From Myxococcota bacterium (GTDB taxonomy: Bacteria > Myxococcota_A > UBA796 > UBA9615 > JAKLKC01): a stretch of 64,000 bases of DNA. The stretch is taken from contig JAKLKC010000038.1 of the NCBI GenBank assembly GCA_023150875.1, positions 2,408 to 66,407 of the forward strand. The letters run 5' to 3'. The notes beneath the pieces were generated by a model. The model ran no database searches, had not been told where the DNA came from, and was given only the letters and a program-made list of their open reading frames with translations. The stretch's first letter is position 1. The number at the start of each line of letters is the position of its first letter. The translations under genes were made by a program, and so were the position numbers. This document shows positions 37,470 to 54,706 of this stretch, piece by piece.

Positions 37470-37931
37470 GGCGCGGAGCCGTCCAGGCGACCGCCGGTGG
37501 GCGCGGCCTCCCAGGGGGCCGGGTCCGCGGGAGGAAAGTCCGAGCTCCGCAGGGCAGGGTGCCGGGTAACACCCGGTCGGGGTGACCCGCAGGAGAGTGC
37601 CACAGAGAGCAGACCGCCCGCAGGGGCGCTCCCCCGGAGGGGGGGCGCTCGCGGCGCCGCGACGCCAGCCGCGGCGCCTCGGTCCGGCCCCGACGCCGGC
37701 CCGAGGGTCAGGGTGAAAGGGTGCGGCAAGAGCGCACCGCCGCCGCCGGCAACGGGGGCGGGCACGGAAAACCCCACCCGGAGCAAGGCCAAATAGGGGA
37801 GAGATCGAGGGTTGCCCGCCCGATCTCCCGGGTCGGCCGCTCGAGCCCGCGGGGGACCGCGGGCCTAGACGAATGGTCGCCGCCGGCCGCGAGGCCGGAA
37901 CAGAACTCGGCTTACCGGACGACTCCGCGCC
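37470..37931 (+). ncRNA. rnpB: RNase P RNA, type A
   Basis: GAGGAAAGTCCGAGCTCC, AGTGCCACAGA, GGGTGAAAGGGTGCGGCAAGAGCGCACC, ACAGAACTCGGCTTA. P1 pairing GGCGCGGAG.CGTCC / GGACGACTCCGCGCC. Confidence 0.97.
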
Positions 37932-38094
37932 ATCTTCCTCCCGGGTCCCGAGCCCGAGCCCGGTCCGCAACGGGCTCGGGTGCGGGCGCGGGCCGAGGGG
38001 TCCGCGCCGAGGCCGGGGTCCTCGATCACGAGGGAGTGGACCTCGTCCGGCGCCCCCGGTATCCTTCGCTGACTCCGGGAGGAGAGTGGCCCAG

Positions 38095-41000
38095 ATGAAC
38101 GCGCGCTGCTGGACACCTTTGATGATGGCGGGGATCGCCCTCGCGGCCGGGGGCTGCAAGACGCTCTCGAACGACTCCCGCCAGGACCCTCAGATCTCCA
38201 TCACCAGCCCGGCGGACGGCTACCAGGTGGTGACCGGGGCGCCGGTGCAGTTCGTCGCCCGGGTGGAGGACGACTCCCCCGACCTGGACTCCATCGAGGT
38301 GGTATGGAGCAGCGACGTCGATGACGAGCTGTTCCGCGGCAACCTGGACTCCCAGGGGGTCAGCCAGTTCACCACCACCGGCCTCAGCTCCGCCACCCAC
38401 GTCATCACCGCTACCGCCACCGACCTGGACGGCGACCAGGGGATGGTGTCGGTGACGGTGACGGTCGATCCCAACAGCGCCCCGGAGCTGGTCCTCACCT
38501 CCCCCACATCCGGCGCGAGCTTCCCGTCGAACTCCGTGGTGCCGGTCAGCGGCACCGTCTCCGACGGGCAGGACGCTCCGGGGCAGCTCCGGATCACGGT
38601 CTCCAGCAGCCTGTCGGTGGATCCGCTGGTCGCGGACCTCGCCCCCGCGAACGACGGGACCTTCAGCGTCTCGGTCTTCCTCGGCGAGGGAGCCCAGACC
38701 CTCACGGTCGCCGCCACGGACCGGGGAGGCCTCACGGACTCCGAGGAGGTGGACCTCACGGTGGTACCCGCCGACGAGGTGCCGGAGTGCGAGATCCTCT
38801 CCCCCGCGTCCGGCTCCGTCACCCCCCCCGACACCACCATCGAGGGCACCGCCTCGGACGGCGAAGACGCCGCCGGGGACCTCGTGGTCACCCTCTCCAG
38901 CAACGTCGGTGGCCCCCTCGGCTCCCCGGTGCCCGACGCGAACGGCGACTTCCAGTGGCCGGTGACCCTCGCCTCGGGCAGCCACGTCCTGACGTTGCGG
39001 GTGGAGGACAGCCAGGCCCAGTACTGCGAGGACAGCGTCACCGTCACGGTGTCGGGCGCCCCCGCGGTGAGCATCGACAGCCCGGCGGACGGCACGGTGT
39101 TCAGCGCCGGCTCCTCGATCACCCTCTCGGGCATGGTGTCGGACTCCGAGGACCCGCCTCCGGACCTCGAGATCGCGTGGACCAGCTCCCTGGTGGTGGA
39201 CCCCCTCTCCACCACGCCGGCGGGCGGCAGCGGCACCACCATCGCCCAGCTCGCCGCGGGGCTCGAGAACGGCATCCACGTCATCACGCTCACCGCTACC
39301 GACACCGACGGCCAGGTCGGCAGCGACAGCATCACCCTCGTCGTGAACGGCTCCCCGGGCTCGCCCGCCGTCGCCATCGTCCCCGAGAGCCCCTACACCA
39401 CCGACGACCTGGTGGTCGCCATCACCGCCGACGCGATCGATCCCGACGGCGATCCGGTGACCTACCGCTACGAGTGGTACCTCAACAACGTGGTCGATCC
39501 CTCCCTGACGACCGACACCGTGTCCTCCTCCCTCACCACCAAGGGCCAGATCTGGAAGGTCCGGGTCTATGCCAGCGACGGGATCGGCGAGGGGCCGGCG
39601 GCCCAGGCCCAGGTGACGGTGCAGAACTCCCTGCCGGTGGTGGACGGGGCCACCCTGTCCCCCGATCCCGCCACCGACGGGCAGGCGATCACGGCCACGC
39701 CGGGGACATACTCCGACGCCGACGGCGACGCCGTGACCCTGCGCTACCGCTGGTACGTGAACGGTACGAACCTGGGCCCCAACTCCGACTCCCTCACCCC
39801 CAGCAACTTCGTGCGGGGGGACGAGGTCTGGGTCACGGTGACCGGCAGCGACGGGGCCGAGGGGCCGGCGGCGGAGTCGGCGCACCTGGTCGTCCAGAAC
39901 GCCCTGCCCACCACCCCCACCGTCACCCTGTCCCCCTCGCCGGCGACGCCCGGGACGGACCTGGTCTGCAGCCGCGGCAACTCCGTCGACGCGGACGGAG
40001 ACGCCCTCACCTACGAGTTCGCGTGGGACGTGGACGGCGCCCCCCGGGCCGACCTCGCCGGCCTCCAGACCGTCCCCGGCTCGGAGCTGCTCACGGGCCA
40101 GGTGTGGACCTGCTCGGTCACGCCCTGGGACGGCATCGACTACGGGGTGGCTGGCTCCGCCTCGGCGACCGTGGGCGAGGTGGTGTACCCGGTGGTCCGG
40201 GACCTGGCGGGTGCGGCCCTGGTGCTGGACGGCCAGTCGGGGAACGACCGGTTCGGCGCCGCCGCCACCTCCGGCGACCTGAACGCCGACGGCTGGCCGG
40301 ACCTGGTGGTGGGTGCGCCCAAGCGGGACTCGGGCTCCGACGTCGACACCGGCGCCGTGTACGTCTTCTTCGGCTCCGGGGACGGGTTCCCGGCGAGCCT
40401 GGGGGCCGACTCCGCCGACGTGGTCCTGACGGGGACCCACGCCGGAGGCCTGGCCGGCACCGAGGTGCGGGCGGACGGCGACGCCAACGGCGACGGCCGC
40501 GCCGACCTGCTGGTGGGGGTGCCCGCCGACGACACCGCGGGCAACAACGGCGGAGCGGTCTTCGTTCTGTTCGGCGGCCCCGGCTTCGTCGACGAGTCCA
40601 GCGCCCTCTGGGACGTGGCCGACGTCGCCCTCGTCGCCGAGAGCGCCGACGACAAGGCGGGCACTTCCGTGGCCTACGTCCCGGACATCGACGGGGACGG
40701 GGACGACGAGGTCCTGGTGGGGGCGCCGGACACCGGCAGCGGGATCGACACCGCCCAGACCGGGACGGTCTACCTGGTGCTGGGAGATCCGGCCCTCGGG
40801 GGCACCTTCCCCCTGGGCGACGCCGACGCCCGGTACGAGGGGCTGGCGACCCTGAACCGGTGCGGGCAGTCCGTCGCCGGGCTCGGGGACGTGGACGGCG
40901 ACTCCGTCCCCGACTTCGCCATCGGGGCCACCAAGGAGTCCACCACCGCCACCAACGGAGGGACGGTCTACTTCTACTCCGGTGCGACGGCGCTGGCCGC

Positions 41001-41589
41001 CTCGGGCCCCGTCTCGGGGGCGACGGCGGTGATCCGGGGCGACGTGGCCGAGGCGCAGTTCGGGGACGAGATCCGGTCCTGGGACGCGGACGGAGACGGC
41101 CTGGCGGACATCGTGGTCGCCTCGATCCTCGACGACACCACCGGGACCGACGCCGGCGCGGTCTACGTCTTCCTGGGGGCGGAGGGGCTGTCGGGGGAGC
41201 TGGAGTCCTCCGCCGACGCCTTCCTGGTCACCCGGGGGGAGGAGGCGTCCGCCGCCGCCGGGCGGTCCCTCGCGGTGCTGCCCGACTGGGACGGGGACGG
41301 GATCGACGAGCTGGTGATCGGCCAGTCCGCCGCGACGGAGCCGAGCTTCAAGGAGGGGGTGGTCTGCGTCCTGCTGACCACCCAGCCCTGGCCGTCGGGG
41401 CTGGGGAGCGCCGCCCTGCGGATGAGCGGCCCGGAGTCCAACGACAACGCCGGCACGGCGGTGGCGGTGGTGCCGGACTTCGACGGTGACGGCTACGACG
41501 ACCTCCTCATCGGCGCCGAGCTGGGCGAGGGCATCGAGCACGACAGCGGCACCGCCTACCTGGTGGGCCGTACCCTCTTTCCCTGGTAG
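38095..41589 (+). CDS. large surface lipoprotein: tandem Ig-like domains + FG-GAP (integrin-alpha-like) repeats
   Basis: LAAGGC lipobox. Repeated ITSPADG/HVITLTATD units and DADGDxxxYxYxW units. About 7 DxDGDGxxDLxVGA repeats. Confidence 0.88.
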   Translation: MNARCWTPLMMAGIALAAGGCKTLSNDSRQDPQISITSPADGYQVVTGAPVQFVARVEDDSPDLDSIEVVWSSDVDDELFRGNLDSQGVSQFTTTGLSSATHVITATATDLDGDQGMVSVTVTVDPNSAPELVLTSPTSGASFPSNSVVPVSGTVSDGQDAPGQLRITVSSSLSVDPLVADLAPANDGTFSVSVFLGEGAQTLTVAATDRGGLTDSEEVDLTVVPADEVPECEILSPASGSVTPPDTTIEGTASDGEDAAGDLVVTLSSNVGGPLGSPVPDANGDFQWPVTLASGSHVLTLRVEDSQAQYCEDSVTVTVSGAPAVSIDSPADGTVFSAGSSITLSGMVSDSEDPPPDLEIAWTSSLVVDPLSTTPAGGSGTTIAQLAAGLENGIHVITLTATDTDGQVGSDSITLVVNGSPGSPAVAIVPESPYTTDDLVVAITADAIDPDGDPVTYRYEWYLNNVVDPSLTTDTVSSSLTTKGQIWKVRVYASDGIGEGPAAQAQVTVQNSLPVVDGATLSPDPATDGQAITATPGTYSDADGDAVTLRYRWYVNGTNLGPNSDSLTPSNFVRGDEVWVTVTGSDGAEGPAAESAHLVVQNALPTTPTVTLSPSPATPGTDLVCSRGNSVDADGDALTYEFAWDVDGAPRADLAGLQTVPGSELLTGQVWTCSVTPWDGIDYGVAGSASATVGEVVYPVVRDLAGAALVLDGQSGNDRFGAAATSGDLNADGWPDLVVGAPKRDSGSDVDTGAVYVFFGSGDGFPASLGADSADVVLTGTHAGGLAGTEVRADGDANGDGRADLLVGVPADDTAGNNGGAVFVLFGGPGFVDESSALWDVADVALVAESADDKAGTSVAYVPDIDGDGDDEVLVGAPDTGSGIDTAQTGTVYLVLGDPALGGTFPLGDADARYEGLATLNRCGQSVAGLGDVDGDSVPDFAIGATKESTTATNGGTVYFYSGATALAASGPVSGATAVIRGDVAEAQFGDEIRSWDADGDGLADIVVASILDDTTGTDAGAVYVFLGAEGLSGELESSADAFLVTRGEEASAAAGRSLAVLPDWDGDGIDELVIGQSAATEPSFKEGVVCVLLTTQPWPSGLGSAALRMSGPESNDNAGTAVAVVPDFDGDGYDDLLIGAELGEGIEHDSGTAYLVGRTLFPW

Positions 41590-42422: not shown

Positions 42423-44486
42423 TCAGGACCAGCCCACCTCGATCAGGTACTTCGACTCGTCGATCTGGATCCCCACCTCCAGGTCCCCGGCGATCAGCCC
42501 CACGGGGTAGCGGATCCCCGCGAAGAGCTTCCGCAGGTCGGCGTCGGGGGCCGCCTCGCCCTCGGTGTCGGGGTGGACCTCGCGGGAGCGGTCCCGCCAC
42601 CGACGGCGGGTCAGGCGGCGGCCCTCCTTCTCCTCCTCGAACACCGCGCCCAGGAAGTGGAAGAGGGCGGGGCGCAGGGGCAGCGGAGGCAGGCTCACCC
42701 TCCCGCCGCCCCGGGCGGGGCTGTTCAGGACCAGGTCCCCTCCCCACTCGTCCGTGGGCTGGGAGGCGGGCTTGAGCACGGCCTTGACGGTGGAACCGGC
42801 CCGGGGCGAGGCCCGGCGGCACCCCTCCAGGTACGCGGAGTAGAGGTCCAGGACCTCCCGGGGCTGGCCCGCCAGGCGGTCCCGCACCGGCCCCAGGTCC
42901 ACCGACTGGAGCGTGTATCCGTTGGCGCGCCGGCCCCGGGCGATGGGCAGGTGCGCGGCGAGGGTCTCGTCGTCGGGGCAGGCCCCCGCCTTCTTGAGGC
43001 TGCTCTTGAGCTCCCAGAAGAGGGCCGTGGCCTTGGGGGGGCGGTGGGTGACGTCGTCCCGGGCCAGGATGGCGTGGATCGCGTAGGCCGCCGCCCACGC
43101 CTGGATCCCCGGGAACCGCTCGTCGATGGCGTTCTCCAGGGCCAGGCGGGCCAGCCAGTAGCTCTGGGGTCCGACGGGCACCGGCACGTCGTTCCACAGC
43201 AGGCGCCCCACGATCTTCGCCCGCCGGTTCTCCTCCACGAGGTCCACCCGCGCCAGGGCCACCGCCGCTCCCGCGGCCTCGGACGGAGTCTCGCGGCGGT
43301 CCAGCCAGCGCCCGAAGAGGGGCTCCGCCAGGCTGGTGGTCCCCTTCTCGTCCCGGCGCAGGTAGCCCAGGCGGACCAGCATCCGCTGGTCGGCGATGTC
43401 CAGGTCGGCGATGGGGGCGGGGTTCCCCCGGGCGAGGGACTGCAGCGCCGCCGTCTCGTGGGGATCCAGGTGGTCCAGGTCGAACTGGAGGGCCCGCATC
43501 TCGGGCATCGAGGAGATGTCCAGCAGCGCGTCCACCGCCCGGGAGAGGGCCGGTCCCTTCAGGCCCGCGTCCCGCAACGGGGCGTGGATCCCGCCCCCCG
43601 CGGCGATCCGCGCCGCGACGTCCGCGGCGGCCTTCCGGTCCAGGGCGGTGGCGAGGGCCTCGGTGGCGTGGGGGGACGAGGGGCTCAGCACGATGTGGCA
43701 GAGGGTGTGGATCAGCCACGGGTGGCCGCCGGTGCGGGCCAGGACGGCGTCCTGGTCCTCGGCGGCGTCGAAGCCCTGGGCCACGAGGTGCCGGGCCCCG
43801 TCGGGCTCCAGCGCCCCCAGGTAGGCGACCCGGAACAGCTCCAGGAACGGCGAGACCAGGGTCCCGGCGTCGAAGCGGCGCAGCAGGGTCTTCACCGAGG
43901 CCATCACGCAGCGCACCCGCCCCTGGCCCCGCTCCACCAGGTCCCTCACCCCCAGGAGGGCCTGGTCCAGGGTGTCGGTCCCCGACGGATCCGACGGGGC
44001 CATCACCGCCTCCGCCTCGTCCACCAGCAGGTAGACCACCGGCGGGCGGGGCTGATCCGACCAGTGCAGCAGGCAGTCCTCGACGTGGTCCAGCACCTCG
44101 GGGGAGGGCGCCCCCGCGGCGGGCCCGGGGGGCAGGGCCAGGCCCGCCCTCTGGCAGGCGCGGCGGAAGGTCCGCAGGAGCTGGCGGGCGAAGCCGGGAC
44201 CGCTGGGGTCGTAGGCCATGTTGAGGAAGACCGGCACCGCCGGCTCCCCGTCGGGTCCGCCATGGAGGAGCTGTCGCTCCACCGCCTTGAGGAGGGACGT
44301 CTTGCCCATGCGCCGTCGGCCGACGATCCACACCGAGCTTCGCGCCCCCGCCAGGGTGCGGGTGAGGACGGCGCGGCCGACGTAGCGGTCCCCGTCGGCC
44401 CACATCCCCGGGGAGAAGCGGTCGGCGCGGGTGGGGCCGCCGCCGGTCCAGGGGTTCGTGCCGGAGTCGCCAGTTCGGGATGTCAT
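42423..44486 (-). CDS. STAND-like P-loop NTPase with C-terminal winged-helix-like modules
   Basis: NPWTGGGP...YVGR, Walker A GRRRMGKTS, Walker B YLLVDEAE, TGGHPW (GxP). C-terminal ELKSSLKK...RGRRANGYTL resembles the OmpR-type wing. Confidence 0.8.
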   Translation of the reverse strand: MTSRTGDSGTNPWTGGGPTRADRFSPGMWADGDRYVGRAVLTRTLAGARSSVWIVGRRRMGKTSLLKAVERQLLHGGPDGEPAVPVFLNMAYDPSGPGFARQLLRTFRRACQRAGLALPPGPAAGAPSPEVLDHVEDCLLHWSDQPRPPVVYLLVDEAEAVMAPSDPSGTDTLDQALLGVRDLVERGQGRVRCVMASVKTLLRRFDAGTLVSPFLELFRVAYLGALEPDGARHLVAQGFDAAEDQDAVLARTGGHPWLIHTLCHIVLSPSSPHATEALATALDRKAAADVAARIAAGGGIHAPLRDAGLKGPALSRAVDALLDISSMPEMRALQFDLDHLDPHETAALQSLARGNPAPIADLDIADQRMLVRLGYLRRDEKGTTSLAEPLFGRWLDRRETPSEAAGAAVALARVDLVEENRRAKIVGRLLWNDVPVPVGPQSYWLARLALENAIDERFPGIQAWAAAYAIHAILARDDVTHRPPKATALFWELKSSLKKAGACPDDETLAAHLPIARGRRANGYTLQSVDLGPVRDRLAGQPREVLDLYSAYLEGCRRASPRAGSTVKAVLKPASQPTDEWGGDLVLNSPARGGGRVSLPPLPLRPALFHFLGAVFEEEKEGRRLTRRRWRDRSREVHPDTEGEAAPDADLRKLFAGIRYPVGLIAGDLEVGIQIDESKYLIEVGWS

Positions 44487-44508
44487 TCGGGGTCGCGGGG
44501 CGGGAAGG

Positions 44509-47500
44509 TCACGCGGCATCGAGCCGGGCGCTCTGCCCGCCGTACTGCTCCTGGAAATAGCGTTCGACGAATGAGGGGGGCACCGGGGTCTCGGGCCGGA
44601 TCCGCGTCTCGGTGCAGTAGCGGCGCCACCCCGCGATGATATCCGAACAGAGCCGTTGGATGCGAAGGGGGCGACAACCGGTGTAGAGACAGATGAGGTC
44701 CACGGAGGACGTGTCGTAGTTGACCCCGTCCGCCCGGGAGGGCTTCTGCACCAGCTCCCGGGCGTCCGCGTCGTCCAGGGGGCCCAGCACCAGGATCCGC
44801 CCGATCCCCAGCAGGTCGCTGTTGGGCCCCTGGGTCTGGCCGTATCGGGTCAGGTCCACCCCGGCGATGATCAGGCCGAAGACGTCGGGGTACTCCGAGG
44901 CGAGGTGCCGGCAGCCCTGGGCGATCCGCGTCCCCTCGTCGCCGAGGTCGTGGAAGAGGCGCTGGGCCTCGTCCAGCAGGAGCAGCACCCGGCGCTTGCG
45001 CCGGTCCTGGAGGAGGTAGAAGAGCTCGACGATGACGTCCCGGGCCGCGATCTCGGACTCGACCCGGTCGAGACCGATGGAGTCCCGGTCCTCCTGGGGC
45101 AGGGCGATGTCGGTGGCGATCTTGTTGAGGAGCTGGCGGAAGAAGTGGGACCCGTCGGCGCACTGCTCCATGGACAGGTAGACCGGCATGTCGGCGCCGG
45201 TGGCGACGACGTCGGGGGTCTCCAGGATCCGCTTGAGCTTGAACAGCAGGCTGGTCTTGCCGATCCGCTTGTCGCCGGAGATGGTCACCACGGCGCGGTT
45301 GCGGACCGCCAGCAGCAGCTCGGCGATCTGGTGCCTCCGGCCGAAGAACATGGCGTCGTCCCGCAGCGGCATGCCGATCACGTAGCGGGTGTCCATGACC
45401 TGGATCCGCTCCTCGAGGTCGTCCACCTGCCACTGGAGGTCCACCACCTGCCCCTCCAGCTCCCGCTCCCTCCGCCGGCCGCGCAACGCCACGGCCCAGC
45501 CGAGGCCGACGGTGAGCAGGGCGAAACCCATGTGGGGCGACGAGAGGTGGAGCCGCCAGTCCACCAGGGGATCGCTCACCCGCCCGTCGGCGGCGACGGT
45601 CTGCACCTGGCAGCGGCTCAGGACCCGCCACCCCACGTCGATGGGGAGGCTCATGGAGGTGGTCCGCCGGGGGCTCTCGCCGCAACTGTAGAGGAGCTCG
45701 GCGGGGCGGGGCTCCCACCGGTCCAGGCCGTGGCCCACCGAGGTCCGGGCCACCAGCCCCGGCGAGAGGGAGAAGAGGGGCCCGGCGAGGTCCAGGACCC
45801 CCGGCACCACCATCTGGGGGCCCAGGACCCACCGGGAGTCCCCCGCGGCGTCCACCAGGCGGAACCAGGTCTGGCCCAGGCGGTCCTCCAGGGCCCGGGA
45901 CACCCGCCAGCCGTGGCCGGCCCGGGCGTAGGTGGACCCCGGCAGCGCGTCGCCGGCCCGCCCCACCACGTCGCCGAGCTGGAACCACACGCCCCCGTCG
46001 GACGTGGTCATCAGCACCCGGGCGGCGCGACCCAGCTCCCCGAGGGGCTGGGGAGAGGGCGTCCACTCGGGGTAGCCCGAGGGTGCCCGGGTGGCCGAGC
46101 CGATCCGCCAACCGAGGGAGGGCGGATCGGACGTCGGCAGGGGGGCGAGCCAGCGGAGACCGACGCCGTCGGAGCCCGCCAGGCGGACGCCGCCGCGGGA
46201 GTCGGGCATCGGCTCGATGAGGCAGGTGCGGCTCGGGTTCGAGGGGCAATGCAGCTTGGGGGCCCGGGTGAGCTGGGGCGCGCCCTCCCGGGTCCGGACG
46301 AGGTGCCACATCTCGCCGCCGGTGGGGGAGGCCACGATCACGGTGGCCGCACCCCGCTCCGCCTCAGGTCCCGCGTGGAGCGACGGCGACTCCGGGAGAA
46401 AGCCCTTGGGGTAGGGCCACGTCCGGACCTGCCAGCCCGTCGGGTCCCGGGACCACAGGGCGAGGCCGTGGCCGGTCCACGCCACGACGTCGTCCCCCCA
46501 TCGGTCGATGGGGGGAAGGCGGCCGGGCCCCTCCAGCAGCTCGGGGGGGAGGAGGCCGGCGGGGGCGGGCGCGCACCAGCCGCCGGTACACGTCAGCAGG
46601 TCCTGGCCCCCCCCGGGCAGGCGGATCAGGACGTCCCGGCCGAAGGGCACCACCTCCACGCCCGCGGCCGCCACCGCCTCCACGGGCCGGTAGTCCAGGG
46701 GGAAGCGGACCATGGAGCGCTCGGGCTGCCCGGTGCGGACCCCGACCCCCCACATCCGCCCAGCGCCGTCCCGGTAGAGGGACTCGATCCAGGCTCCCGA
46801 GGGTGCCTCGGGGATGGGGTGGACCGCGCCAGTGCCCGGCGTCCACGCCTGAAGCCCCCGGGAGTCGGCGGGCCCGAACCACACCAGCCCGTGGGGATCG
46901 ACCTCCACCACCCGGATGGAGGGGATCCCCGGGGCGAAGGTCGGGAGCGGCGCGGCCGCGGCCGGCGACCCTTCGGGAGGGCGGGGAGACTCGGCCCCTC
47001 CCCCGCTCCAGCGCGCCACCCGCTCCACCTTCGCCCCTTCCCGGGCCAGCGCCACCCGCAGGAGCTCCCCGCCGGCGGTGCCGGCGAAGACCTCGCCGGC
47101 GGCCCGGGTCCCCGCCGAGAGGGCGGTGATGGCGCGCCCCGCCGTCTCCTCGAGGCGTCGGGGGGCGGCCCAGCGCCGGGCGGGCTCCACGACGAAGAGG
47201 CCCCGATCGGTGCCCACCAGCAGGGGGCCGCCGGGCACGCCGTGGACGCGCCGGATCACCGCGACGGAGGTGAGGGGATCGGGGAACTTCACGCCGATGG
47301 ACAGGGCGACGTCCGCTCCCACCAAGGGGACCCGCAGCAGGCGCCCCCGGTCCTCCCGGTCGCTGACCACGAGCCAGATCGCCGCGTCCTCACCGGTGGC
47401 GGAGTCGTCCAACTCCGCGTCACGTATGATGAATTCTCCATCCGGAAGCGAGATCTGGGCCTCGCTCGCCACCTGCCAGGCCCTGGCCTTCCGCACCCGC

Positions 47501-48219
47501 CCCGGGGCGATGGGCTGGTCGTCCTGCCGGGGCAGGCGCAGCTCCCGCACCTGGAGGGTGGGGCTGAGGTCCGGGCGGCTCGCGGGGAGGACGGCGACCT
47601 CGTAGGCGGTGTCCCCGCTGAGCCGCATGACCCGGTCCGTCGCCCCCTGGGAGCGCCAGCCGTCGTCGGAGAGCTGCCAGCCGTCCACCCGGGCGTCGTA
47701 CCGGTAGAGGCGCCCCTCGTCGGTGAGCCACACCCGCCCGTAGAGGTCCTCGCCGAGGGTGGGCTGGGCGAAGGCCCGGGGGTAGAAGAGGGGGCCGGTC
47801 TCCCGGGCCAGGGGGGGCCAGTCCTTGCGGTCGGGGCTCCCGTGCCCGGGTCGGGCGGGGGTGGCGGAGGGGTCGGCGTCGGTGGGCGCGGGGGTGGGGT
47901 GTGGCGCGGCCTTCCGGACGGAGCGCCCCCTGCCGCCACGGCCCGGGGCGCGGGGAGAGGCGGCAGGACCATCGGACGGGGTCGCCTGGGGGCCGCGGGG
48001 TACGGGGCCCCAGACGGCCCCCTCGGGGGGAGGCGAGGTCTGGCGCCACACGTCACCGGCCGCGGCGGGGGGCGGAGGAGCGGCCGGGGCCCCGGTCCAA
48101 GGGCTCGCCGGCTCGGGCGGGGGCTGCTGGGGGAGCGCGGGGGCGGGAAGCAGCGCCAGGACGGCGCCGAGGGCGGCGGACAGGGGGATCGACGGGGCCG
48201 CGCGGGCCCGCGTCCGCAT
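44509..48219 (-). CDS. transmembrane receptor-like protein: signal peptide, Pro-rich linker, beta-propeller, single TM, cytoplasmic STAND-like NTPase
   Basis: Repeats EDLYGRVW, VDPHGLVWFG, RDGAGRMWG, TSDGGVWF, EDRLGQTWF. TM GFALLTVGLGWAVAL followed by RGRRR. Then YVIGMPLRDDAMFFGR, GDKRIGKTS, LLLLDEAQ, TGCRP. Confidence 0.8.
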   Translation of the reverse strand: MRTRARAAPSIPLSAALGAVLALLPAPALPQQPPPEPASPWTGAPAAPPPPAAAGDVWRQTSPPPEGAVWGPVPRGPQATPSDGPAASPRAPGRGGRGRSVRKAAPHPTPAPTDADPSATPARPGHGSPDRKDWPPLARETGPLFYPRAFAQPTLGEDLYGRVWLTDEGRLYRYDARVDGWQLSDDGWRSQGATDRVMRLSGDTAYEVAVLPASRPDLSPTLQVRELRLPRQDDQPIAPGRVRKARAWQVASEAQISLPDGEFIIRDAELDDSATGEDAAIWLVVSDREDRGRLLRVPLVGADVALSIGVKFPDPLTSVAVIRRVHGVPGGPLLVGTDRGLFVVEPARRWAAPRRLEETAGRAITALSAGTRAAGEVFAGTAGGELLRVALAREGAKVERVARWSGGGAESPRPPEGSPAAAAPLPTFAPGIPSIRVVEVDPHGLVWFGPADSRGLQAWTPGTGAVHPIPEAPSGAWIESLYRDGAGRMWGVGVRTGQPERSMVRFPLDYRPVEAVAAAGVEVVPFGRDVLIRLPGGGQDLLTCTGGWCAPAPAGLLPPELLEGPGRLPPIDRWGDDVVAWTGHGLALWSRDPTGWQVRTWPYPKGFLPESPSLHAGPEAERGAATVIVASPTGGEMWHLVRTREGAPQLTRAPKLHCPSNPSRTCLIEPMPDSRGGVRLAGSDGVGLRWLAPLPTSDPPSLGWRIGSATRAPSGYPEWTPSPQPLGELGRAARVLMTTSDGGVWFQLGDVVGRAGDALPGSTYARAGHGWRVSRALEDRLGQTWFRLVDAAGDSRWVLGPQMVVPGVLDLAGPLFSLSPGLVARTSVGHGLDRWEPRPAELLYSCGESPRRTTSMSLPIDVGWRVLSRCQVQTVAADGRVSDPLVDWRLHLSSPHMGFALLTVGLGWAVALRGRRRERELEGQVVDLQWQVDDLEERIQVMDTRYVIGMPLRDDAMFFGRRHQIAELLLAVRNRAVVTISGDKRIGKTSLLFKLKRILETPDVVATGADMPVYLSMEQCADGSHFFRQLLNKIATDIALPQEDRDSIGLDRVESEIAARDVIVELFYLLQDRRKRRVLLLLDEAQRLFHDLGDEGTRIAQGCRHLASEYPDVFGLIIAGVDLTRYGQTQGPNSDLLGIGRILVLGPLDDADARELVQKPSRADGVNYDTSSVDLICLYTGCRPLRIQRLCSDIIAGWRRYCTETRIRPETPVPPSFVERYFQEQYGGQSARLDAA

Positions 48220-49262
48220 CACTTCAGGGGCCTCCAGGCGGCCCGGGGGATGGCGGCGGAGATCGGCAGGACCTGGGCCGCCAGCACGTATGCGGCGCGC
48301 CGGTTCCGGATCTCGTCGGTGCCGTCCTCGGTGACCACGGCGAGGCCGTCCTCTCCGAACCCCTGGTAGGAGATGGGACCCGCGAACCCCCTCTGGCGGA
48401 AGTACCCGGCGATGGACCGGGCGCGGGACTCGCTCAGTATCTGGTTGCTCCCCCGATCCCCCACCGTGTCCGTATATCCGGCGACGAAGAGCTGGACCTT
48501 CACCAGCCCCCCGTACCGGGCGACGGCCTGGGCGATCCGGTCCCAGGCCCGGTCCAGCTTGGGCCGCTCGGTGGCCTCGATGGCGTGGCTGCCGGTGGCG
48601 AAGACCACCTCCTCGTGGGGGATGTCCAGGGCCCAGGGGGAGATCTCCTCGCTCGCGTAGAAGCCGAACTTGTCGTAGCCCACGACGTCGATGCGGACCA
48701 CCTCCCCCCCCGGGGTCCACGTCACCGGCAGGGGCGTCCCGGGCGCCTCGCCGTCGAACTCCGCCGCCTCCTCGGCGATGGGCCCGTCGGGCCCCAGCAC
48801 GGTGATCTGGACCTTCCCGGCGGGCCGGGTGAGCGTGACCTCCAGCCGCCCCGCCTTCAGGTCGATGGCCTCCCGGGGCACCTTCATCTCGAGCCCCTCC
48901 CCCACGAACACGCTGAAGGACACCGGCACCCGGTACTCCTCCCCGTTGGGGTACACCCCGGCGATCTCCCCCCGGTAGGCGGCCTCCCCCTCGGGCTGGT
49001 CCCAGGTCAGCACCACCGCCTTCCCCCTGGCGGCGGGCTTCCCCCCCAGGACCAGCTCCGTGCCGTCGTCCCGGGTGACCCTCAACGTCAGGCTCTTGAA
49101 GTCCGCCTGGGGCTGGACGGTGACGGTGGGCCTGCCCTTGCCGACCCGGACCACCTGCTCCGCGCGCCAGGTGAACAGGTCCAGGGCGTGGGAGGGGGTG
49201 GGGAGGGTGAGGAGGGTGAGGAGGGTGAGGACGATGACCCCGAGGGCCGTCCTTGCGGCCAT
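48219..49262 (-). CDS. exported protein with C-terminal OmpA-like peptidoglycan-binding domain
   Basis: Signal peptide. FATGS...GYTDTVG...NQILSESRA...GFGE...NRR. Its stop overlaps the next ATG (TGATG). Confidence 0.88.
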   Translation of the reverse strand: MAARTALGVIVLTLLTLLTLPTPSHALDLFTWRAEQVVRVGKGRPTVTVQPQADFKSLTLRVTRDDGTELVLGGKPAARGKAVVLTWDQPEGEAAYRGEIAGVYPNGEEYRVPVSFSVFVGEGLEMKVPREAIDLKAGRLEVTLTRPAGKVQITVLGPDGPIAEEAAEFDGEAPGTPLPVTWTPGGEVVRIDVVGYDKFGFYASEEISPWALDIPHEEVVFATGSHAIEATERPKLDRAWDRIAQAVARYGGLVKVQLFVAGYTDTVGDRGSNQILSESRARSIAGYFRQRGFAGPISYQGFGEDGLAVVTEDGTDEIRNRRAAYVLAAQVLPISAAIPRAAWRPLK

Positions 49263-49481: not shown

Positions 49482-50471
49482 ATGTTCGACGGCGCTTCTG
49501 TCCTGGTCACCGGCGGCACCGGCAGCTTCGGCCGGCGCTTCGTGCGCATGCTGCTCGATCGCTACCGGCCCCGGCGGGTGATCGTCTTCAGCCGTGACGA
49601 GTTCAAGCAGCACGAGATGGCCGCGGGCTTCACCGATCCGGCGATGCGCTTCTTCATCGGTGACGTGCGGGACGAGCGTCGCCTGTGGCGCGCCCTGAAC
49701 GGCGTCGACTACGTCGTCCACGCCGCGGCCCTCAAGCACGTCCCCGCCGCCGAGTACAACCCCTCCGAGTTCGTGAAGACCAACATCCTCGGCTCCCAGA
49801 ACGTGGTGGACGCCTGCCTCGACCGGGGAGTCCGGCGGGTGGTGGCCCTGTCCACCGACAAGGCCTGCAACCCCATAAACCTGTACGGGGCGACGAAGCT
49901 CTGCGCCGACAAGCTCTTCGTCGCCGGGAACTCCTACCGGGGGGCCGAAGGGACCCGCTTCGCGGTGGTGAGGTATGGCAACGTGGTGGGCTCCCGCGGC
50001 AGCGTGATCCCCGCCTTCGCCGCCCAGAGGCCCACGGGACGCCTGACCATCACCGACCGCCGGATGACCCGCTTCTGGATCACCCTCGACGAGGCGGTGA
50101 GGCTCGTCTGGCGCGCGTTCGCCGACATGGAGGGCGGCGAGGTCTTCGTCCCCAAGATCCCCAGCATGCGCCTGGTGGACCTCGCCCACGCCGTCGCGCC
50201 GGAGTGCGAGCTGGTGGACACCGGGATCCGCCCCGGCGAGAAGCTCCACGAGGCGATGATCTCGCCCGACGACGCCCCCTACACGGTGGAGTACGACGAC
50301 TGCTACGTCATCCGCCCCGCCATCCACGCCTGGAGCCGCGACGAGGCCGGGCCCCGGGGCCGCCCCGTCCCCTCCGGCTTCACCTACACCTCGGACCTCA
50401 ACGACCGGTGGCTGGACGCGGAGGGGCTCCGGGCCCTGATCGAGGGGATGAAGCCGGGGGACGACGCTTGA
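49482..50471 (+). CDS. pseB: UDP-GlcNAc 4,6-dehydratase (inverting)
   Basis: TGGTGSFG, SRDEFKQ, HAAALKHVP, LSTDKACNPINLYGATK, RYGNVVGSRGSV, MTRFWITL. Confidence 0.93.
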   Translation: MFDGASVLVTGGTGSFGRRFVRMLLDRYRPRRVIVFSRDEFKQHEMAAGFTDPAMRFFIGDVRDERRLWRALNGVDYVVHAAALKHVPAAEYNPSEFVKTNILGSQNVVDACLDRGVRRVVALSTDKACNPINLYGATKLCADKLFVAGNSYRGAEGTRFAVVRYGNVVGSRGSVIPAFAAQRPTGRLTITDRRMTRFWITLDEAVRLVWRAFADMEGGEVFVPKIPSMRLVDLAHAVAPECELVDTGIRPGEKLHEAMISPDDAPYTVEYDDCYVIRPAIHAWSRDEAGPRGRPVPSGFTYTSDLNDRWLDAEGLRALIEGMKPGDDA

Positions 50472-51697
50472 GCGGGACGGGGTCACCGCCTCGGCGACCG
50501 GCCCTCGCGGGTTACGGCCGGCAGTGGATCGATGACGAGGACGTCGCGGCGGTGGTGGCCGCCCTCCGGTCGGACCACCTGACCCAGGGCCCGGCGGTGG
50601 AGGCGTTCGAGAGGGCCCTCGCCGAGCGCTGCGAGGTCCCCCACGCCGTCGCGGTGGCCAACGGCACGGCGGCCCTCCACCTGGCCTGCCTCGCCCTCGA
50701 CCTGCCGGCGGGCTCGGTGGGCATCACGTCGGCGCTGACGTTCGCCGCGTCCGCCAACGCCATGGAGCTCTCGGGGCTGGTGGCGGACTTCTCGGACGTC
50801 GATCCCTTGTCCTCGTGCATGGACGCCCTCACCCTGGAGGCCGCCCTCGCGCGGCTGCCCGAGGGGAGGGCGCGCCTGGTCGTCCCCGTCCACTTCGCCG
50901 GCCACCCCTGCCCCATGGACGAGATCGCCGCCGTGGCGTCGGCCCGCGGCCTGCGGGTGATCGAGGACGCCTGCCACGCCCTGGGGGCGGACCACCCCGA
51001 CGGCCGGGGAGGGAGGCTCCCCGTGGGCTCCTGCGCCCACGCCGACCTGGCGGTGCTGAGCTTCCACCCGGTCAAGCACGTCACCAGCGGCGAGGGCGGG
51101 GCGGTCCTCACCCGGGACGCCGCCCTGGCGGAGCGCCTGCGGGCCCTGCGCAGCCACGGGATGGAGGGTCGGCCCGAGAGGCTGAAGGTCCCCGAGGAGG
51201 CCTTCGACCCCGCCACGGGCGAGAAGAACGCCTGGTACCACGAGATGCACTCCCTGGGTCTCAACTACCGCCTGACCGATCTTCAGGCCGCCCTGGGCGC
51301 CAGCCAGCTCCGCAAGCTGCCCCGGTTCCTCCAGAAGCGGCGCGCCCTGGCCGCCCGTTACGCGGAGCGCCTCGCGCCCCTGCCCTTCGCGCGGCTCCCC
51401 ACCACCCGGGAGGGCTACGGGCACGCCTGGCACCTGTACGTGGTGGGCCTCGACTTCGACGCCCTGGGGCTGACCCGTCACCAGGTGATGGTCCACCTCC
51501 GGGAGCGGGGGATCGGCACCCAGGTCCATTACCTTCCGGTGCCTTTCCACCCCTACTACCGGGACCGCTGCGCCGGGCGCGCGTGGCCCGAGGCGGAAGC
51601 CGCCTATCGCCGCTGCCTCTCCCTGCCCCTCCACCCCGGCATGGACGCTTCGGATGTCGACGCCGTCGCGGACGCCCTGGAGGAGCTGGGCCGGTGA
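50468..51697 (+). CDS. pseC: UDP-4-amino-4,6-dideoxy-AltNAc transaminase
   Basis: YGRQWID, LTQGP, EDACHALG, SFHPVKHVTSGEGG, GTQVHY. Confidence 0.88.
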   Translation: MSGTGSPPRRPALAGYGRQWIDDEDVAAVVAALRSDHLTQGPAVEAFERALAERCEVPHAVAVANGTAALHLACLALDLPAGSVGITSALTFAASANAMELSGLVADFSDVDPLSSCMDALTLEAALARLPEGRARLVVPVHFAGHPCPMDEIAAVASARGLRVIEDACHALGADHPDGRGGRLPVGSCAHADLAVLSFHPVKHVTSGEGGAVLTRDAALAERLRALRSHGMEGRPERLKVPEEAFDPATGEKNAWYHEMHSLGLNYRLTDLQAALGASQLRKLPRFLQKRRALAARYAERLAPLPFARLPTTREGYGHAWHLYVVGLDFDALGLTRHQVMVHLRERGIGTQVHYLPVPFHPYYRDRCAGRAWPEAEAAYRRCLSLPLHPGMDASDVDAVADALEELGR

Positions 51698-52473
51698 GCG
51701 GACCCGGGGATCCCCTCGGCGCGCGCCCTCCCCCGGCCCGGGACGTCGTGGTGATAGTGCAGGCCCGCATGGGCAGCACCCGCCTCCCCGGGAAGGTGCT
51801 GGAGGACGTCGGGGGCCGGCCGATGCTCCACCGGGTGATGGAGCGGGTGGCCCGGGCGAGGCTCCCGGCGAGGTGCGGGATCGCCACCACCACCCATCCC
51901 CGGGACGACGCCGTGGCCGCCGCGGCCCGGGACCTGGGGGTGGGGCTGTTCCGAGGCTCCGAGGACGACGTGCTGGCCCGCTACCTCGGCGCCGCCGGGG
52001 CGTTCGCCGCCGGGGCCGTGGTGCGGGTGACGGCGGACTGCCCCCTGGTGGACCCCGGGATCCTGGACCGGGTCGTGGAGAGGCTCGGCGTCGGGGACGT
52101 CGACTACGCCTCCAACACCCTGGAGAGGGCCTGGCCCCGGGGCCTGGACGTCGAGGCGTTCACGGTGGAGGCCCTGGAGCGGGCGGCCCGGGAGGCCCCC
52201 CCCGGGCCCGATCGCGAGCACGTCACCCTGTGGATGTACCGCCACCCCGGCGCCTTCCGCCTCGCGGGGATCCCCGCCGACGGGGACCACGCCCACCACC
52301 GCTGGACCGTCGACACCGCCGAGGACCTGGAGCTGGTCCGAAGGATCTACGCCCGCCTGGGTCCGGACGGCCTCTTCGGCTGGAGGGGGGCCCTGGCCCT
52401 GGTGGAGTCGGATCCGTCCCTGCCGGCGATCAACGCCGCCGTGCTCCAGAAGGGGATCGGTCCGCTCCCGTGA
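51694..52473 (+). CDS. cytidylyltransferase, SpsF/PseF-like (CMP-nonulosonate synthetase)
   Basis: QARMGSTRLPGKV, RGSEDDVL, RVTADCP, REHVT, RWTVDTAED. Confidence 0.85.
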   Translation: MSGPGDPLGARPPPARDVVVIVQARMGSTRLPGKVLEDVGGRPMLHRVMERVARARLPARCGIATTTHPRDDAVAAAARDLGVGLFRGSEDDVLARYLGAAGAFAAGAVVRVTADCPLVDPGILDRVVERLGVGDVDYASNTLERAWPRGLDVEAFTVEALERAAREAPPGPDREHVTLWMYRHPGAFRLAGIPADGDHAHHRWTVDTAEDLELVRRIYARLGPDGLFGWRGALALVESDPSLPAINAAVLQKGIGPLP

Positions 52474-53546
52474 AGGATCCGGCCCCCTTCCCTGCCCTGC
52501 TGGTCCGCGCCGACGCCGGGCCCGGGATCGGCGCGGGCCACGTGATGCGCGGCCTCGCCCTGGGGCAGGCGTGGGCGGACGCCGGGGGGAGGGTGGAGTT
52601 CCTGACCCGCCCGGGGGTGCCGGAGCTGGAGGCCCGCCTCCGGGGCGAGGGCTTCGGGGTGCACCCCTGCGAGGTCGCGCCGGGACGGGACGACGCGGCC
52701 CTGACCGGCGAGCTGGCCCTCCGCCTGGGGGCGGGCTGGGTGGCGGCGGACGGCTACGCCTTCGATGCCCCCTGGCAGGAGGCGGTCCGGGCCTCGGGGG
52801 CGAGGCTCCTGGTGGTCGACGACTACGGCCACGCCGGAGAGTGGCCGGCGGAGGTCGTGCTGAACCCGAACCTGGGGGCGGATCCCGCCCGCTACGGGAG
52901 GCGCGCCCCGCACACCCGGCTCCTGCTGGGACCGCGCTTCGCGCTCCTGCGGCGGGAGTTCCTCGCCCGAAGGGGCGATGCCGCCCGGGATCGGTCGGCG
53001 GGTCGCCGCCTGCTGGTGACCCTGGGGGGGAGCGATCCCGCGGACGCGACCTCGCGGGTGCTGGACGCCCTGGACCTCCTCCCCCCGGGGGAGCTGGAGA
53101 CGACGGTGGTGCTGGGGGCCGCCCACCCGAGGCGGGAGGTCCTGCGGGCGAGGCTGGCGGCGGCCGGGATCCGAGGGGTGGAGGCCACCGACGACATGGC
53201 CGGGCTCATGGCGTGGGCGGACATGGCAGTGTCGGCGGGGGGGAGCACCTGCTGGGAGCTCGCATTCATGGGGGTCCCGGCGCTGGTCCTGGTGGTCGCT
53301 GACAACCAGCGGGGCGCCACCCGGGCCCTCCACGCCGCGGGCTGCGTCGAGTCCCTGGGCGAGGCGCCGGCCTGGGCGGGGCGGCCCGCCGTGGTCGCCG
53401 GGGCGCTGCGCTCCCTGGTGGGGGACGGGGCGAGGCGGCGGAGCATGGCGGAGCGCCTGCGGGCGCTGGTGGACGGGCGAGGGGCGGAGAGGGTGGTGGG
53501 GGCGATGGTGGAGTGGTCGAACGAGGTGGCGCGGCCGCGGGACTGA
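52470..53546 (+). CDS. pseG: UDP-2,4-diacylamido-trideoxy-altrose hydrolase
   Basis: RADAGPGIGAGHVMR, LGGSD, SAGGSTCWE, ADNQ, VDGRGAERV. Confidence 0.88.
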   Translation: MKDPAPFPALLVRADAGPGIGAGHVMRGLALGQAWADAGGRVEFLTRPGVPELEARLRGEGFGVHPCEVAPGRDDAALTGELALRLGAGWVAADGYAFDAPWQEAVRASGARLLVVDDYGHAGEWPAEVVLNPNLGADPARYGRRAPHTRLLLGPRFALLRREFLARRGDAARDRSAGRRLLVTLGGSDPADATSRVLDALDLLPPGELETTVVLGAAHPRREVLRARLAAAGIRGVEATDDMAGLMAWADMAVSAGGSTCWELAFMGVPALVLVVADNQRGATRALHAAGCVESLGEAPAWAGRPAVVAGALRSLVGDGARRRSMAERLRALVDGRGAERVVGAMVEWSNEVARPRD

Positions 53547-53650
53547 ACCCGGGCGGGGCGGGGGTCACCGCCTCGGTTGCGCCTGCCCCGGGCCTGGAAC
53601 ACCATGGGGACCTTCGACGCACCCGATCCCCGGGCGCTGGAGATCCCTCC

Positions 53651-54706
53651 TTGCCCCCCCTCTCGATCCCCATTGGCTCAAGGCTCGTGGGTCCTGGTCA
53701 TCCGACCTTCGTGGTGGCGGAGATCTCCGCGAACCATGGGCACGACTACGATCGGGCGGCGCGACTCGTCGAGGCCGCGGCGAGAGCGGGCGCCGACGCG
53801 GTCAAGCTCCAGACCTACACCCCCGACACGCTGACCATCGACTGCGATGGCCCGGTGTTCCGGGTGGGCACCACCAATGCGTGGCAGGGGCGGACCCTCT
53901 ACGACCTGTATTCCGAGGCGTACACGCCGTGGGAGTGGCACCCTCGCCTGAAGGGGGTCGCGGACGACCTGGGGATCCCCCTCTTCTCGACGCCCTTCGA
54001 CCTGACTGCCCTGGAGTTCCTGGAGGATCTCGGGGTGCCTGCCCACAAGATCGCCTCCTTCGAGATCGTCGACCTGGAGCTCGTCGAGGCCATCGCCCGC
54101 AAGGGGCGGCCGGTGATCGCGTCGACGGGGATGGCCTCCCTCGGAGAGATCGACGCCCTGGTCTCCACGGTGAGGGGGGCGGGCTCCCCTCCCCTGGCGC
54201 TGCTCCACTGCATCAGCGCCTATCCCGCGGATCCCGCCCGGATGAACCTGGCGACGATCCCCCACCTGGCCCAGGCGTTCGGCGTCGTCGCGGGGCTGTC
54301 GGACCATTCCCTGAGCGACACGGCCGCCATCCTCGCGGTGGGCTTGGGAGCGTCCATCGTCGAGAAGCACTTCACGCTGGCGCGGGCCGACGGCGGACCG
54401 GACGCGTTCTTCTCCATCGAGCCTCCCGAGCTGGCGCGGCTGGTCGCGGCGATCCGGGAAGCCGAGAGGGCCGTCGGGAGCGCGACCTTCGAGCGGAGCG
54501 CCGAGGAGCGACGGAACGACTGCTTCCGGCGCTCCCTGTTCGCGGTCGCCGACATCGGGGTGGGAGACAAGCTCGGACGCGACAACGTCCGCAGCATCCG
54601 CCCCGGGGCGGGCCTCCCGCCGCGCTTCCTCCCCCTCGTCCTGGGGCGCAAGGCCCGGGTCGCCATACCCCGGGGCACGCCCCTGGCTTGGGATCTCCTG
54701 GAGTGA
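53651..54706 (+). CDS. pseI: pseudaminic acid synthase
   Basis: AEISANH, KLQTYTPDT, TPWEWH, KIASFE, SDH, EKHFT, RRSLF...IRPG. Start uncertain. Confidence 0.9.
   Translation: MPPLSIPIGSRLVGPGHPTFVVAEISANHGHDYDRAARLVEAAARAGADAVKLQTYTPDTLTIDCDGPVFRVGTTNAWQGRTLYDLYSEAYTPWEWHPRLKGVADDLGIPLFSTPFDLTALEFLEDLGVPAHKIASFEIVDLELVEAIARKGRPVIASTGMASLGEIDALVSTVRGAGSPPLALLHCISAYPADPARMNLATIPHLAQAFGVVAGLSDHSLSDTAAILAVGLGASIVEKHFTLARADGGPDAFFSIEPPELARLVAAIREAERAVGSATFERSAEERRNDCFRRSLFAVADIGVGDKLGRDNVRSIRPGAGLPPRFLPLVLGRKARVAIPRGTPLAWDLLE

Follow-up and report, generated by a model that had tools for sequence, protein, structure and literature searches.

The 64,000-nucleotide (nt) stretch of Myxococcota DNA analyzed here (the window) contains, at 42423–49262, three co-oriented minus-strand genes that encode a candidate transmembrane sensor/executor pair of STAND NTPases together with a peptidoglycan-binding accessory protein. 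The G+C content around this locus is about 73–77%, high enough that lists of open reading frames (ORFs) are crowded with spurious frames, and the gene calls rest on a frame plot of G+C at third codon positions. The plot resolves g1, an exported OmpA-domain protein, g2, a membrane receptor, and g3, a soluble partner. Plot and sequence together confirm the layout proposed in a sequence-only reading of this DNA, in which a TGATG overlap joins the first two genes and a 22-nt gap precedes the third. The genes and their parts, with transmembrane abbreviated to TM, are as follows:

48219–49262, minus strand: g1, 347 amino acids (aa), exported OmpA-domain protein (frame plot and translation)
48300–48602, minus strand: OmpA-like domain of g1, residues 221–321 (PF00691, 41.5 bits against a cut-off of 27.2, E 1.7e-10)
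48217–48221, minus strand: TGATG junction, in which the g1 stop TGA (48221–48219) shares its A with the g2 ATG (48219–48217)
44509–48219, minus strand: g2, 1236 aa, receptor (frame plot, translation and Pfam)
45550–47772, minus strand: periplasmic region of g2, residues ~150–890 (~740 residues), predicted Reg_prop-like β-propeller(s)
45484–45534, minus strand: predicted TM helix of g2, residues ~896–912, followed by RGRRRERE (sequence and orthologue segment)
44512–45384, minus strand: NTPase module of g2, residues ~946–1236, with Walker A GDKRIGKTS, Walker B LLLLDEA and G-x-P motif TGCRP
44487–44508, minus strand: 22-nt gap between the g2 stop (44511–44509) and the g3 ATG at 44486
42423–44486, minus strand: g3, 687 aa, soluble partner with an N-terminal STAND/ORC-like module and an orphan C-terminal region
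43287–44444, minus strand: nucleotide-binding domain (NBD), helical domain (HD) and winged-helix domain (WHD) of g3, residues ~15–400, with Walker A GRRRMGKTS, Walker B LLVDEAE and TGGHP
42426–43286, minus strand: orphan C-terminal region of g3, residues 401–687, presumed output, with a conserved core at 421–540

Public gene calls give 370 aa for g1 from a GTG at 49331 (P0157), 1237 aa for g2 (P0155), and 687 aa for g3 (P0005), which confines the uncertainty to where g1 and g2 begin. A second in-frame ATG at 44519 would give g3 an 11-nt overlap with g2; the start at 44486 is favoured because the orthologue alignment begins at residue 1 of that form. Promoter and terminator scans of the locus detected none, a result that is uninformative at 75% G+C. 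Contigs from RNA libraries, drawn from four runs in two studies, map to all three genes. The g2/g3 junction is bridged by one of them (X17 record 20, 44291–44601) and the g1/g2 junction by two from different studies (X14 record 6, 48139–48413, and X18 record 26, 48028–48384). These contigs may stem from contaminating DNA and are no proof of transcription or of a single transcript, just as uncovered parts are not evidence of silence; across both junctions they lend weak support to the genes being linked. Sequencing runs that contain the stretch are labelled activated sludge, bioreactor or wastewater.

g1 opens with a signal-like hydrophobic stretch that has no cysteine, and the protein therefore has no lipobox. 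This is followed by a β-rich region of ~190 residues and a C-terminal OmpA-like peptidoglycan-binding domain, which had been recognized in the sequence-only reading and scores above the family cut-off both here and in the orthologue (39.6 bits). Partial NCBIfam matches of g1 to the YiaD, PdsO, PA1041, YfiB, and Pal models all fall below their cut-offs. The β-rich region gave no family match, and a word-indexed search of 5.8 billion proteins returned only the g1 N-domain itself.

g2 consists of a signal-like segment, a Pro/Ala-rich linker, a β-rich periplasmic region, one TM helix, a short charged helical linker, and a STAND-type NTPase. Its TM segment lies under the hydropathy threshold used, and the corresponding segment of the orthologue (917–940) is clear, with a Kyte-Doolittle value of 1.87. 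The NTPase passes the nSTAND1 profile (PF20703) at residues 954–1176 with 33.8 bits against a cut-off of 27.1, passes AAA_16 with 33.8 bits against 32.6, and scores 107 bits with a hidden Markov model (HMM) built from the family alignment described below. In a sequence alignment its Walker A (GKTS) and Walker B (LLLLDEA) motifs are intact, as in STAND NTPases. The single TM helix and P-loop NTPase that had been claimed for g2 thus both stand. A KAP NTPase assignment was rejected: KAP proteins have TM helices inserted within the NTPase, whereas the only TM helix of g2 precedes that domain. The Pfam scan of g1, g2, and g3 returned no HisKA, HATPase, Response_reg or Pkinase match at E ≤ 0.1, in agreement with the earlier statement that no His-kinase, receiver or Ser/Thr kinase motif is present, and the locus does not have the makings of a two-component system.

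The g2 periplasmic region is probably a Reg_prop-like β-propeller or several, an assignment that is weakly supported. Reg_prop (PF07494) matches reach 14.2–16.4 bits in g2, under the cut-off of 20.4, and 23.6 bits in the orthologue, over it. An AlphaFold model of residues 150–900 is all-β with about 50 strands, at a mean predicted local distance difference test score (pLDDT) of 45 that is too low for a fold search. ESM Atlas places the region with Reg_prop and PorZ propeller clusters (0.84–0.86), which we treat as leads only, and a Reg_prop-like motif defined post hoc occurs five times at four distinct sites, compared with a shuffle mean of 0.77, a count reached in 4 of 2000 shuffles. The exported propeller proposed earlier therefore holds as to the signal-like N-terminus and the all-β model and is weak as to the propeller itself. 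The word-indexed search of 5.8 billion proteins with this region found only g2 and its orthologue in a second genome (G001). It is also the fastest-evolving part of the protein, with 25–67% identity to that orthologue per 60-residue window, compared with 75–93% in the NTPase.

The NTPase of g3 is paralogous to the C-terminus of g2 (28% identity over 246 columns, E 2e-9 by BLASTP), and Walker A and B are retained in both. g3 scores under the gathering thresholds of STAND profiles (AAA_22, 23.5 bits against 27; AAA_16, 18.4 bits against 32.6), whereas relatives that phmmer retrieves with it exceed the cut-off of nSTAND1, nSTAND2 or ATPase_2. The AlphaFold model of g3 is confident over residues 15–400, with pLDDT mostly 80–97, and displays the tripartite NBD-HD-WHD arrangement of STAND proteins; the TGGHP (G-x-P) motif is conserved in the family alignment. 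VIA-align superposes this model best on the archaeal ATPases PAB2304 (2qen, Z 19.8, 306 residues aligned) and SSO1545 (2fna, Z 18.3), followed by plant NLR NB-ARC domains (Z 16.6–16.8), ORC2 (Z 15.5), MalT (8bob, Z 13.1), CED-4 (Z 12.9), and the NAIP/NLRC4 chain 8fvu (Z 11.6), and Foldseek retrieves 2qen at E 2.8e-8. Sequence searches of the PDB with g2 and g3 yielded no meaningful match. These assignments place both NTPases in the nSTAND1/ATPase_2 (PF01637)/AAA_35 part of the STAND-like AAA+ proteins, g2 through its nSTAND1 score and g3 through its best superpositions, on PAB2304 and SSO1545. Pfam detects no repeat domain after the NOD in either protein, so the C-terminal sensor repeats of STAND proteins are absent.

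A phmmer search of 1.84 billion representative proteins with g3 retrieved 215 at E ≤ 0.001. Among the matches listed, the best-scoring stretch always lies inside the NTPase and never passes residue 310. Family members match nSTAND1, nSTAND2, ATPase_2, and AAA_35. A Pfam scan of 85 of the 149 listed non-self matches identified a wide range of domains joined to the NTPase: Trans_reg_C in 12 proteins, Pkinase in 11, TIR types in four, ECF sigma, SIR2, and EAD7 in three each, CHAT in two, and GerE, HEPN, and trypsin in one each. Given this range, the NTPase family serves both ordinary signalling and conflict systems. The relay in our locus had been described as phosphorylation-free; in view of the many relatives that bear a Ser/Thr kinase on the partner, that description can apply to its first step only.

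The C-terminal region of g3 lies outside every best-scoring stretch listed for these relatives. Neither it nor the C-terminus of the orthologue matches any Pfam family even at E ≤ 10, the full protein finds only itself in the word-indexed search of 5.8 billion proteins, and a relative-locus search with g3 alone found no relative. Residues 421–540 are nonetheless 85–87% identical to the orthologue, and since they are well conserved yet without a family match, the region is best described as a conserved domain outside the recognized families. The sequence-only reading had assigned winged helix-turn-helix-like tails to g3 and had proposed that the system controls transcription. The related NTPase in that description is sound, while the one winged helix in the model, at about residues 340–397, is the standard third subdomain of the STAND/ORC module, and none is found in the C-terminus.

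On this evidence we judge it very improbable that g3 is an ATP-dependent transcription factor of the MalT or AfsR kind whose C-terminus holds a divergent OmpR-type winged helix or two, which would make the system a receptor-controlled transcriptional switch. The Trans_reg_C, ECF sigma, and GerE outputs of the scanned family members (12, three, and one of 85) would be consistent with such a role, as would an Atlas feature search with residues 285–687, in which Trans_reg_C clusters rank first (0.86 and 0.77), below the level that separates true from shuffled matches and hence a lead only. An hhalign comparison of residues ~578–660 with the Trans_reg_C part of family members points the same way at only E 0.18 and a probability of 0.3%. 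Against these stand the silence of Pfam on both C-termini, the silence of an HMM built from 12 Trans_reg_C domains of family members on residues 396–687 even with filters off, and a pLDDT under 50 for residues 402–687. The g3 C-terminus matches no DNA-binding family in the Pfam, family HMM or hhalign tests, which leaves both the Trans_reg_C assignment and the proposed control of transcription unsupported.

We searched 61 genomes, the source genome (G000) and 60 relatives, for the trio. The source genome has one copy, and a full-length g3 orthologue occurs in two of the 61 only, the source genome and G001, where orthologues of g1, g2, and g3 lie adjacent with 66%, 58%, and 73% identity, respectively (local tblastn). 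Sixteen other window genes gave no match to the 35.5-kb G001 contig at E ≤ 1e-5, bar a 39-residue pilin-signal motif. As the trio is the only synteny shared by the two contigs, it forms a self-contained unit in differing surroundings. A g2-like receptor is also encoded in another Myxococcota metagenome-assembled genome (MAG), at locus L065, where the NTPase is 31% identical (E 1e-21) and part of the periplasmic region is similar as well (E 2e-6). The gene directly downstream of that receptor (L065 14633–15340, minus strand) encodes a 235-aa protein with an NrsF (anti-sigma-F) match of 24.3 bits, under the cut-off of 26.8; this neighbour hints at a different, sigma-factor-based output there.

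To describe the wider family, all six-frame ORFs of relative loci were scored with the family-alignment HMM, and co-oriented NTPase genes within 4 kb were counted as a pair; six near-duplicate loci were removed before counting, and the many weak phylum-search matches covering only the kinase columns of the profile were disregarded. Such tandem sets, of two or three genes, are present at 34 of 57 distinct loci; 12 loci have a lone gene flanked by 3 kb or more on each side, and 11 have a lone gene at a contig edge. In Myxococcota relatives, a soluble NTPase-output protein follows one or two proteins that combine a signal peptide and an extracytoplasmic region with a single TM helix and, at the C-terminus, an NTPase from the same family. 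In one such Myxococcota group (f2), a ~1180-aa protein with a signal peptide, periplasmic region, TM helix, TPR, and NTPase precedes an NTPase-(TPR-S)-adenylate/guanylate cyclase (Guanylate_cyc), and in others (f4/f8) two receptors with a signal peptide, TM helix, and NTPase precede an NTPase-Pkinase protein (Ser/Thr kinase). Sensor and output are exchanged in other phyla. KSB1-type MAGs pair TPR-NTPase with NTPase-Pkinase, an Anaerolineae MAG has Reg_prop-NTPase beside an NTPase, and a Bryobacterales MAG has WD40-NTPase beside NTPase-TIR. In an Actinomycetota MAG the pair is Trans_reg_C-BTAD-AAA_35 and AAA_35-WD40, and in Chloroflexota and one cyanobacterium NTPase-TPR-(FGE-sulfatase or vWA) is accompanied by an NTPase of ~435 aa. 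CAP12-type TIR and EAD1 also occur in paired loci.

Two side features of these loci are worth recording. The f2 cyclase systems (L013 2605–4020 and L014 12197–13621) begin with a conserved ~470-aa protein without a Pfam family, which has one predicted TM helix in G016 and may be a counterpart of g1 as an accessory envelope component. Three Chloroflexota loci (L096 9947–13009, L101 9821–12898, and L085 9893–13615) encode NTPase-TPR proteins that end in FGE-sulfatase (C-type-lectin fold) or vWA and adjoin a short nSTAND2/AAA_35 NTPase or an EAD1-NTPase. They resemble the STAND targets diversified by diversity-generating retroelements (DGRs) in the available part of 10.1101/2023.09.22.558884, where nSTAND1/NACHT targets of DGRs are often two genes.

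Fused forms repeat the arrangement of the pairs. Two NTPase domains in one chain are present in five of the 149 listed family representatives. One of these, P0075 (1874 aa), contains a signal peptide, many Reg_prop repeats, Y_Y_Y, an Ig domain, a TM helix at 1000–1018, and two NTPases, the first of which best matches g2 (E 1e-10) and the second g3. P0075 is therefore the g2-g3 arrangement, in the same order, within a single polypeptide. Pair position also follows phylogeny: on a FastTree phylogeny of 90 NTPase domains, the first-of-pair and second-of-pair labels require 13 and 12 changes, compared with shuffled means of 27.4 and 27.5, and no value that low arises in 500 shuffles. Eleven receptors from Myxococcota f4, KSB1, and Anaerolineae form a clade with 95% support, and the partners of these receptors group in a separate one. 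Kin share labels in this tree, the method is approximate, and several branches are long.

With roughly even confidence, we propose that the locus encodes a transmembrane sensor/executor STAND NTPase pair with a peptidoglycan-binding accessory protein, in which an envelope signal is relayed by co-assembly of the two NTPases. g2 would sit in the inner membrane with its large β-rich, probably propeller, domain in the periplasm, and g1, held on the peptidoglycan by its OmpA-like domain, would bind or present a cue to that domain. The ensuing periplasmic change would pass through the single TM helix and the short charged helix to the cytoplasmic NBD-HD module of g2, which would switch its nucleotide state and, through direct contact, nucleate hetero-oligomerization with the NBD-HD-WHD module of g3. 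Signalling would run from g2 to g3, and clustering of g3 would activate its C-terminal output domain, which in relatives is a Ser/Thr kinase, an adenylate/guanylate cyclase or TIR. NAIP nucleates NLRC4 assembly in this manner, and plant sensor NLRs do likewise for helper NLRs.

The proposal builds on observed gene order and overlaps, domain content, NTPase paralogy, pair recurrence, swapping of sensors and outputs, fusions, and integrity of the Walker motifs. It is supported because the three genes are tightly packed, co-oriented, and the only ones common to the two contigs, because the NTPases of g2 and g3 are paralogous with their Walker motifs kept, and because residues 15–400 of g3 model as a STAND/ORC NBD-HD-WHD module. 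Recurrent pairs (34/57), modular partners, fused forms, and label clustering on the tree add to this support. These comparative findings also support the core of the sequence-only reading, a relay between a membrane receptor NTPase and a paralogous soluble NTPase.

Several observations weigh against our proposal. The propeller assignment is weak. Neither a g3-like nor a g1-like gene adjoins that of the L065 protein, which is the closest g2-like receptor beyond the two trios; this counts against obligate pairing, and a lone NTPase gene is seen at 12 of the 46 evaluable loci. Since similarity to g3-type NTPases was the basis for collecting the loci, and many of them are kin, the counts are descriptive and not independent. 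Many pairs from Chloroflexota and cyanobacteria have the NTPase at the N-terminus of both members, and their long protein has no known output domain, only sensor-type TPR, FGE-sulfatase or vWA domains; the sensor-first order is therefore not universal. The OmpA gene is peculiar to the trio, analogous systems starting with another gene or none. The expectation that homologues of the three genes would be co-located was thus borne out in the only other genome that has the trio, and fails for the OmpA gene within the wider theme and for L065. Finally, g2 and g3 themselves fall in one group on the FastTree phylogeny, weakly supported (81) and with long branches, and because of this grouping their duplication may be recent and independent of the old receptor/partner split.

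Some of these points would suit a different arrangement, in which g3 is a stand-alone, homo-oligomeric STAND regulator that lies beside g2 through local duplication, and g1 and g2 form an envelope ATPase machine, for example for assembly or turnover of surface structures. The grouping of g2 with g3 is what a recent tandem duplication would leave, the L065 receptor stands alone, the G001 trio follows a T2SSE-type ATPase and polysaccharide genes, and the window trio lies beside a pseudaminic-acid-type operon and an FG-GAP/Ig protein. The surface-sugar genes, however, are not orthologous between the two genomes, pairs in several phyla split sensor and output between their members, and fused proteins hold two NTPases in the same order. 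We regard independent action of the two NTPases as improbable.

The main rival to the proposed sensor/executor pair shares its assembly mechanism and differs in biological role and kind of output. The paired STANDs would sense an invader cue at the envelope as part of an anti-phage, anti-predator or kin-recognition system, with the g3 C-terminus as a toxic or abortive effector. In its favour, the NTPase family is fused to TIR, SIR2, CHAT, HEPN, trypsin or EAD7 in 14 of the 85 scanned members, and CAP12-type TIR and EAD1 appear in paired loci. nSTAND1 itself was named and defined in cytoplasmic conflict systems with effector-associated domains, according to the available part of PMC8195603. The trio is sporadic, in 2 of 61 related genomes with non-syntenic flanks, and the g2 sensor domain diverges far faster than the NTPases. 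Yet Pfam finds no known effector domain in the three proteins, the nearest Myxococcota analogues carry cyclase and Ser/Thr kinase outputs, and no mobile-element or other defence genes are found among the scanned neighbours. To our knowledge, characterized defence STANDs sense cytoplasmic phage proteins, which also counts against this role. A search of PADLOC-DB 2.0 gave no meaningful match and no known anti-phage system: g1 aligns with ZorB at E 0.006–0.07, the best value being that of its OmpA domain with the MotB-like part, g2 aligns with PDC-S27 at E 0.009, and g3 has no match. On balance we consider a conflict role unlikely.

More broadly, and only tentatively, the trio may be one member of a widespread form of bacterial transmembrane signalling in which a STAND NTPase takes the place of a kinase as transmitter and a sensor STAND, membrane-bound or repeat-bearing, nucleates oligomerization of a dedicated paralogous executor STAND; the trio would be a member distinguished by a new output domain and by its OmpA-type co-sensor. 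The executor C-terminus would then be swappable among Ser/Thr kinase, cyclase, sigma factor, winged helix-turn-helix, TIR, SIR2, and protease, and the system would be a prokaryotic counterpart of sensor/helper NLR pairs able to read the periplasm. STAND and NLR proteins are usually viewed as single cytoplasmic sensors, and sensor/helper pairs as particular to immunity in plants and animals. In bacteria, signals cross the membrane mostly by way of histidine kinases, chemoreceptors, Ser/Thr kinases, cyclases, and anti-sigma factors.

The closest functional analogues of g2 and g3 are the sensor/helper NLR pairs of animals and plants. In NAIP-NLRC4, NRC networks, and RRS1/RPS4, as here, paralogous STANDs divide sensor and output between them and are often encoded by adjacent genes; g2 and g3 are likewise adjacent paralogous NOD genes with this split. 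g2 differs in that it resides in the membrane and carries its sensing domain outside the cytoplasm, ahead of the NOD in sequence, and neither protein has LRR, WD40 or TPR after the NOD, so the kinship is one of fold and logic, not of close sequence. Activation in sensor/helper NLRs is thought to pass by NOD-NOD contact (PMC9975940 and PMC9528088, in the parts available).

Other known systems share single features with the trio. Two-component and hybrid sensor kinases with periplasmic Reg_prop/Y_Y_Y propellers resemble g2 in their signal peptide, probable Reg_prop-like domain, single TM helix, and partner encoded next door. They differ in that the g2 transmitter is a P-loop NTPase and its partner a paralogue, and that HisKA, HATPase_c, and receiver domains are absent. 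NOD-NOD assembly, not phosphotransfer, would thus confer specificity. MalT/AfsR-type regulators and the actinobacterial cyclase- or kinase-linked AAA_16 proteins also couple a STAND NTPase to a signalling output. These are single cytoplasmic proteins with C-terminal sensor repeats, whereas here sensor and output reside on two paralogous NTPases, one of them membrane-bound. For the periplasmic part formed by g1 and g2, the nearest functional counterparts are OmpA-like partners such as YfiB, and Pal with the TolB β-propeller that binds it. As in TolB-Pal and in YfiBNR (PMC3375315, in the part available), the gene for an envelope signalling protein is accompanied by one for an OmpA/Pal-like protein that binds peptidoglycan; g1 differs in lacking a lipobox cysteine and in its 190-residue N-terminal domain of no known family, and the locus encodes no YfiR-, YfiN- or TolB-like protein.

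A full-text literature search found no description of membrane-receptor STANDs paired with output-bearing paralogues, though supplements and subscription journals could hold a prior mention. The available parts of PMC8195603, PMC7159879, 10.64898/2026.01.04.697583, and 10.1101/2023.09.22.558884 contain no receptor-anchored forms or obligate tandem pairs feeding kinases or cyclases; the architecture tables of the first three, the third being a 2026 preprint surveying STANDs, may list some. As far as this search goes, we could not find the signalling design described, and it belongs within STAND signalling. If correct, a STAND-NTPase receptor with an output-bearing paralogue would add a transmission principle, signalling by nucleated assembly, and would account for the control of orphan Myxococcota kinases and cyclases with an N-terminal NTPase and of the NTPase kinases of KSB1. 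A tractable bacterial model of NOD-to-NOD activation would be a further gain. The locus defines a testable three-protein module with a conserved, presumed output domain that matches no family.

The flanks of the trio are unrelated to it. In G001, a gene for a T2SSE-type (PilB/GspE-like) ATPase (L010 3619–4785) shares 4 nt with the beginning of the g1 orthologue and is preceded by genes for a GT4 glycosyltransferase and a Polysacc_synt flippase, with no counterpart beside g1 in the window. There, a five-gene operon upstream of the trio and divergent from g1 (49482–54706, plus strand) encodes a Polysacc_synt_2 dehydratase, a DegT aminotransferase, a cytidylyltransferase (CTP_transf_3), a Glyco_tran_28_C glycosyltransferase, and NeuB-SAF, a composition that suggests a pathway of the pseudaminic or legionaminic acid type. 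Convergent with g3 is a gene for a 1167-aa surface protein (38086–41589, plus strand) with five FG-GAP repeats, several Ig-like/PKD domains, and Glucodextran_B, which is followed, in the downstream flank of the trio, by a 304-aa ORF without a family. Just upstream of the FG-GAP/Ig gene lies a bacterial class A RNase P RNA (37475–37930, plus strand; full-length match, 211 bits, E 4.4e-67). Beyond the five-gene operon, the segment at 54700–61900 has a lower G+C content of 0.68–0.72 and a strongly negative AT skew of -0.16 to -0.18, and a caller based on third-position G+C places almost no genes in it.

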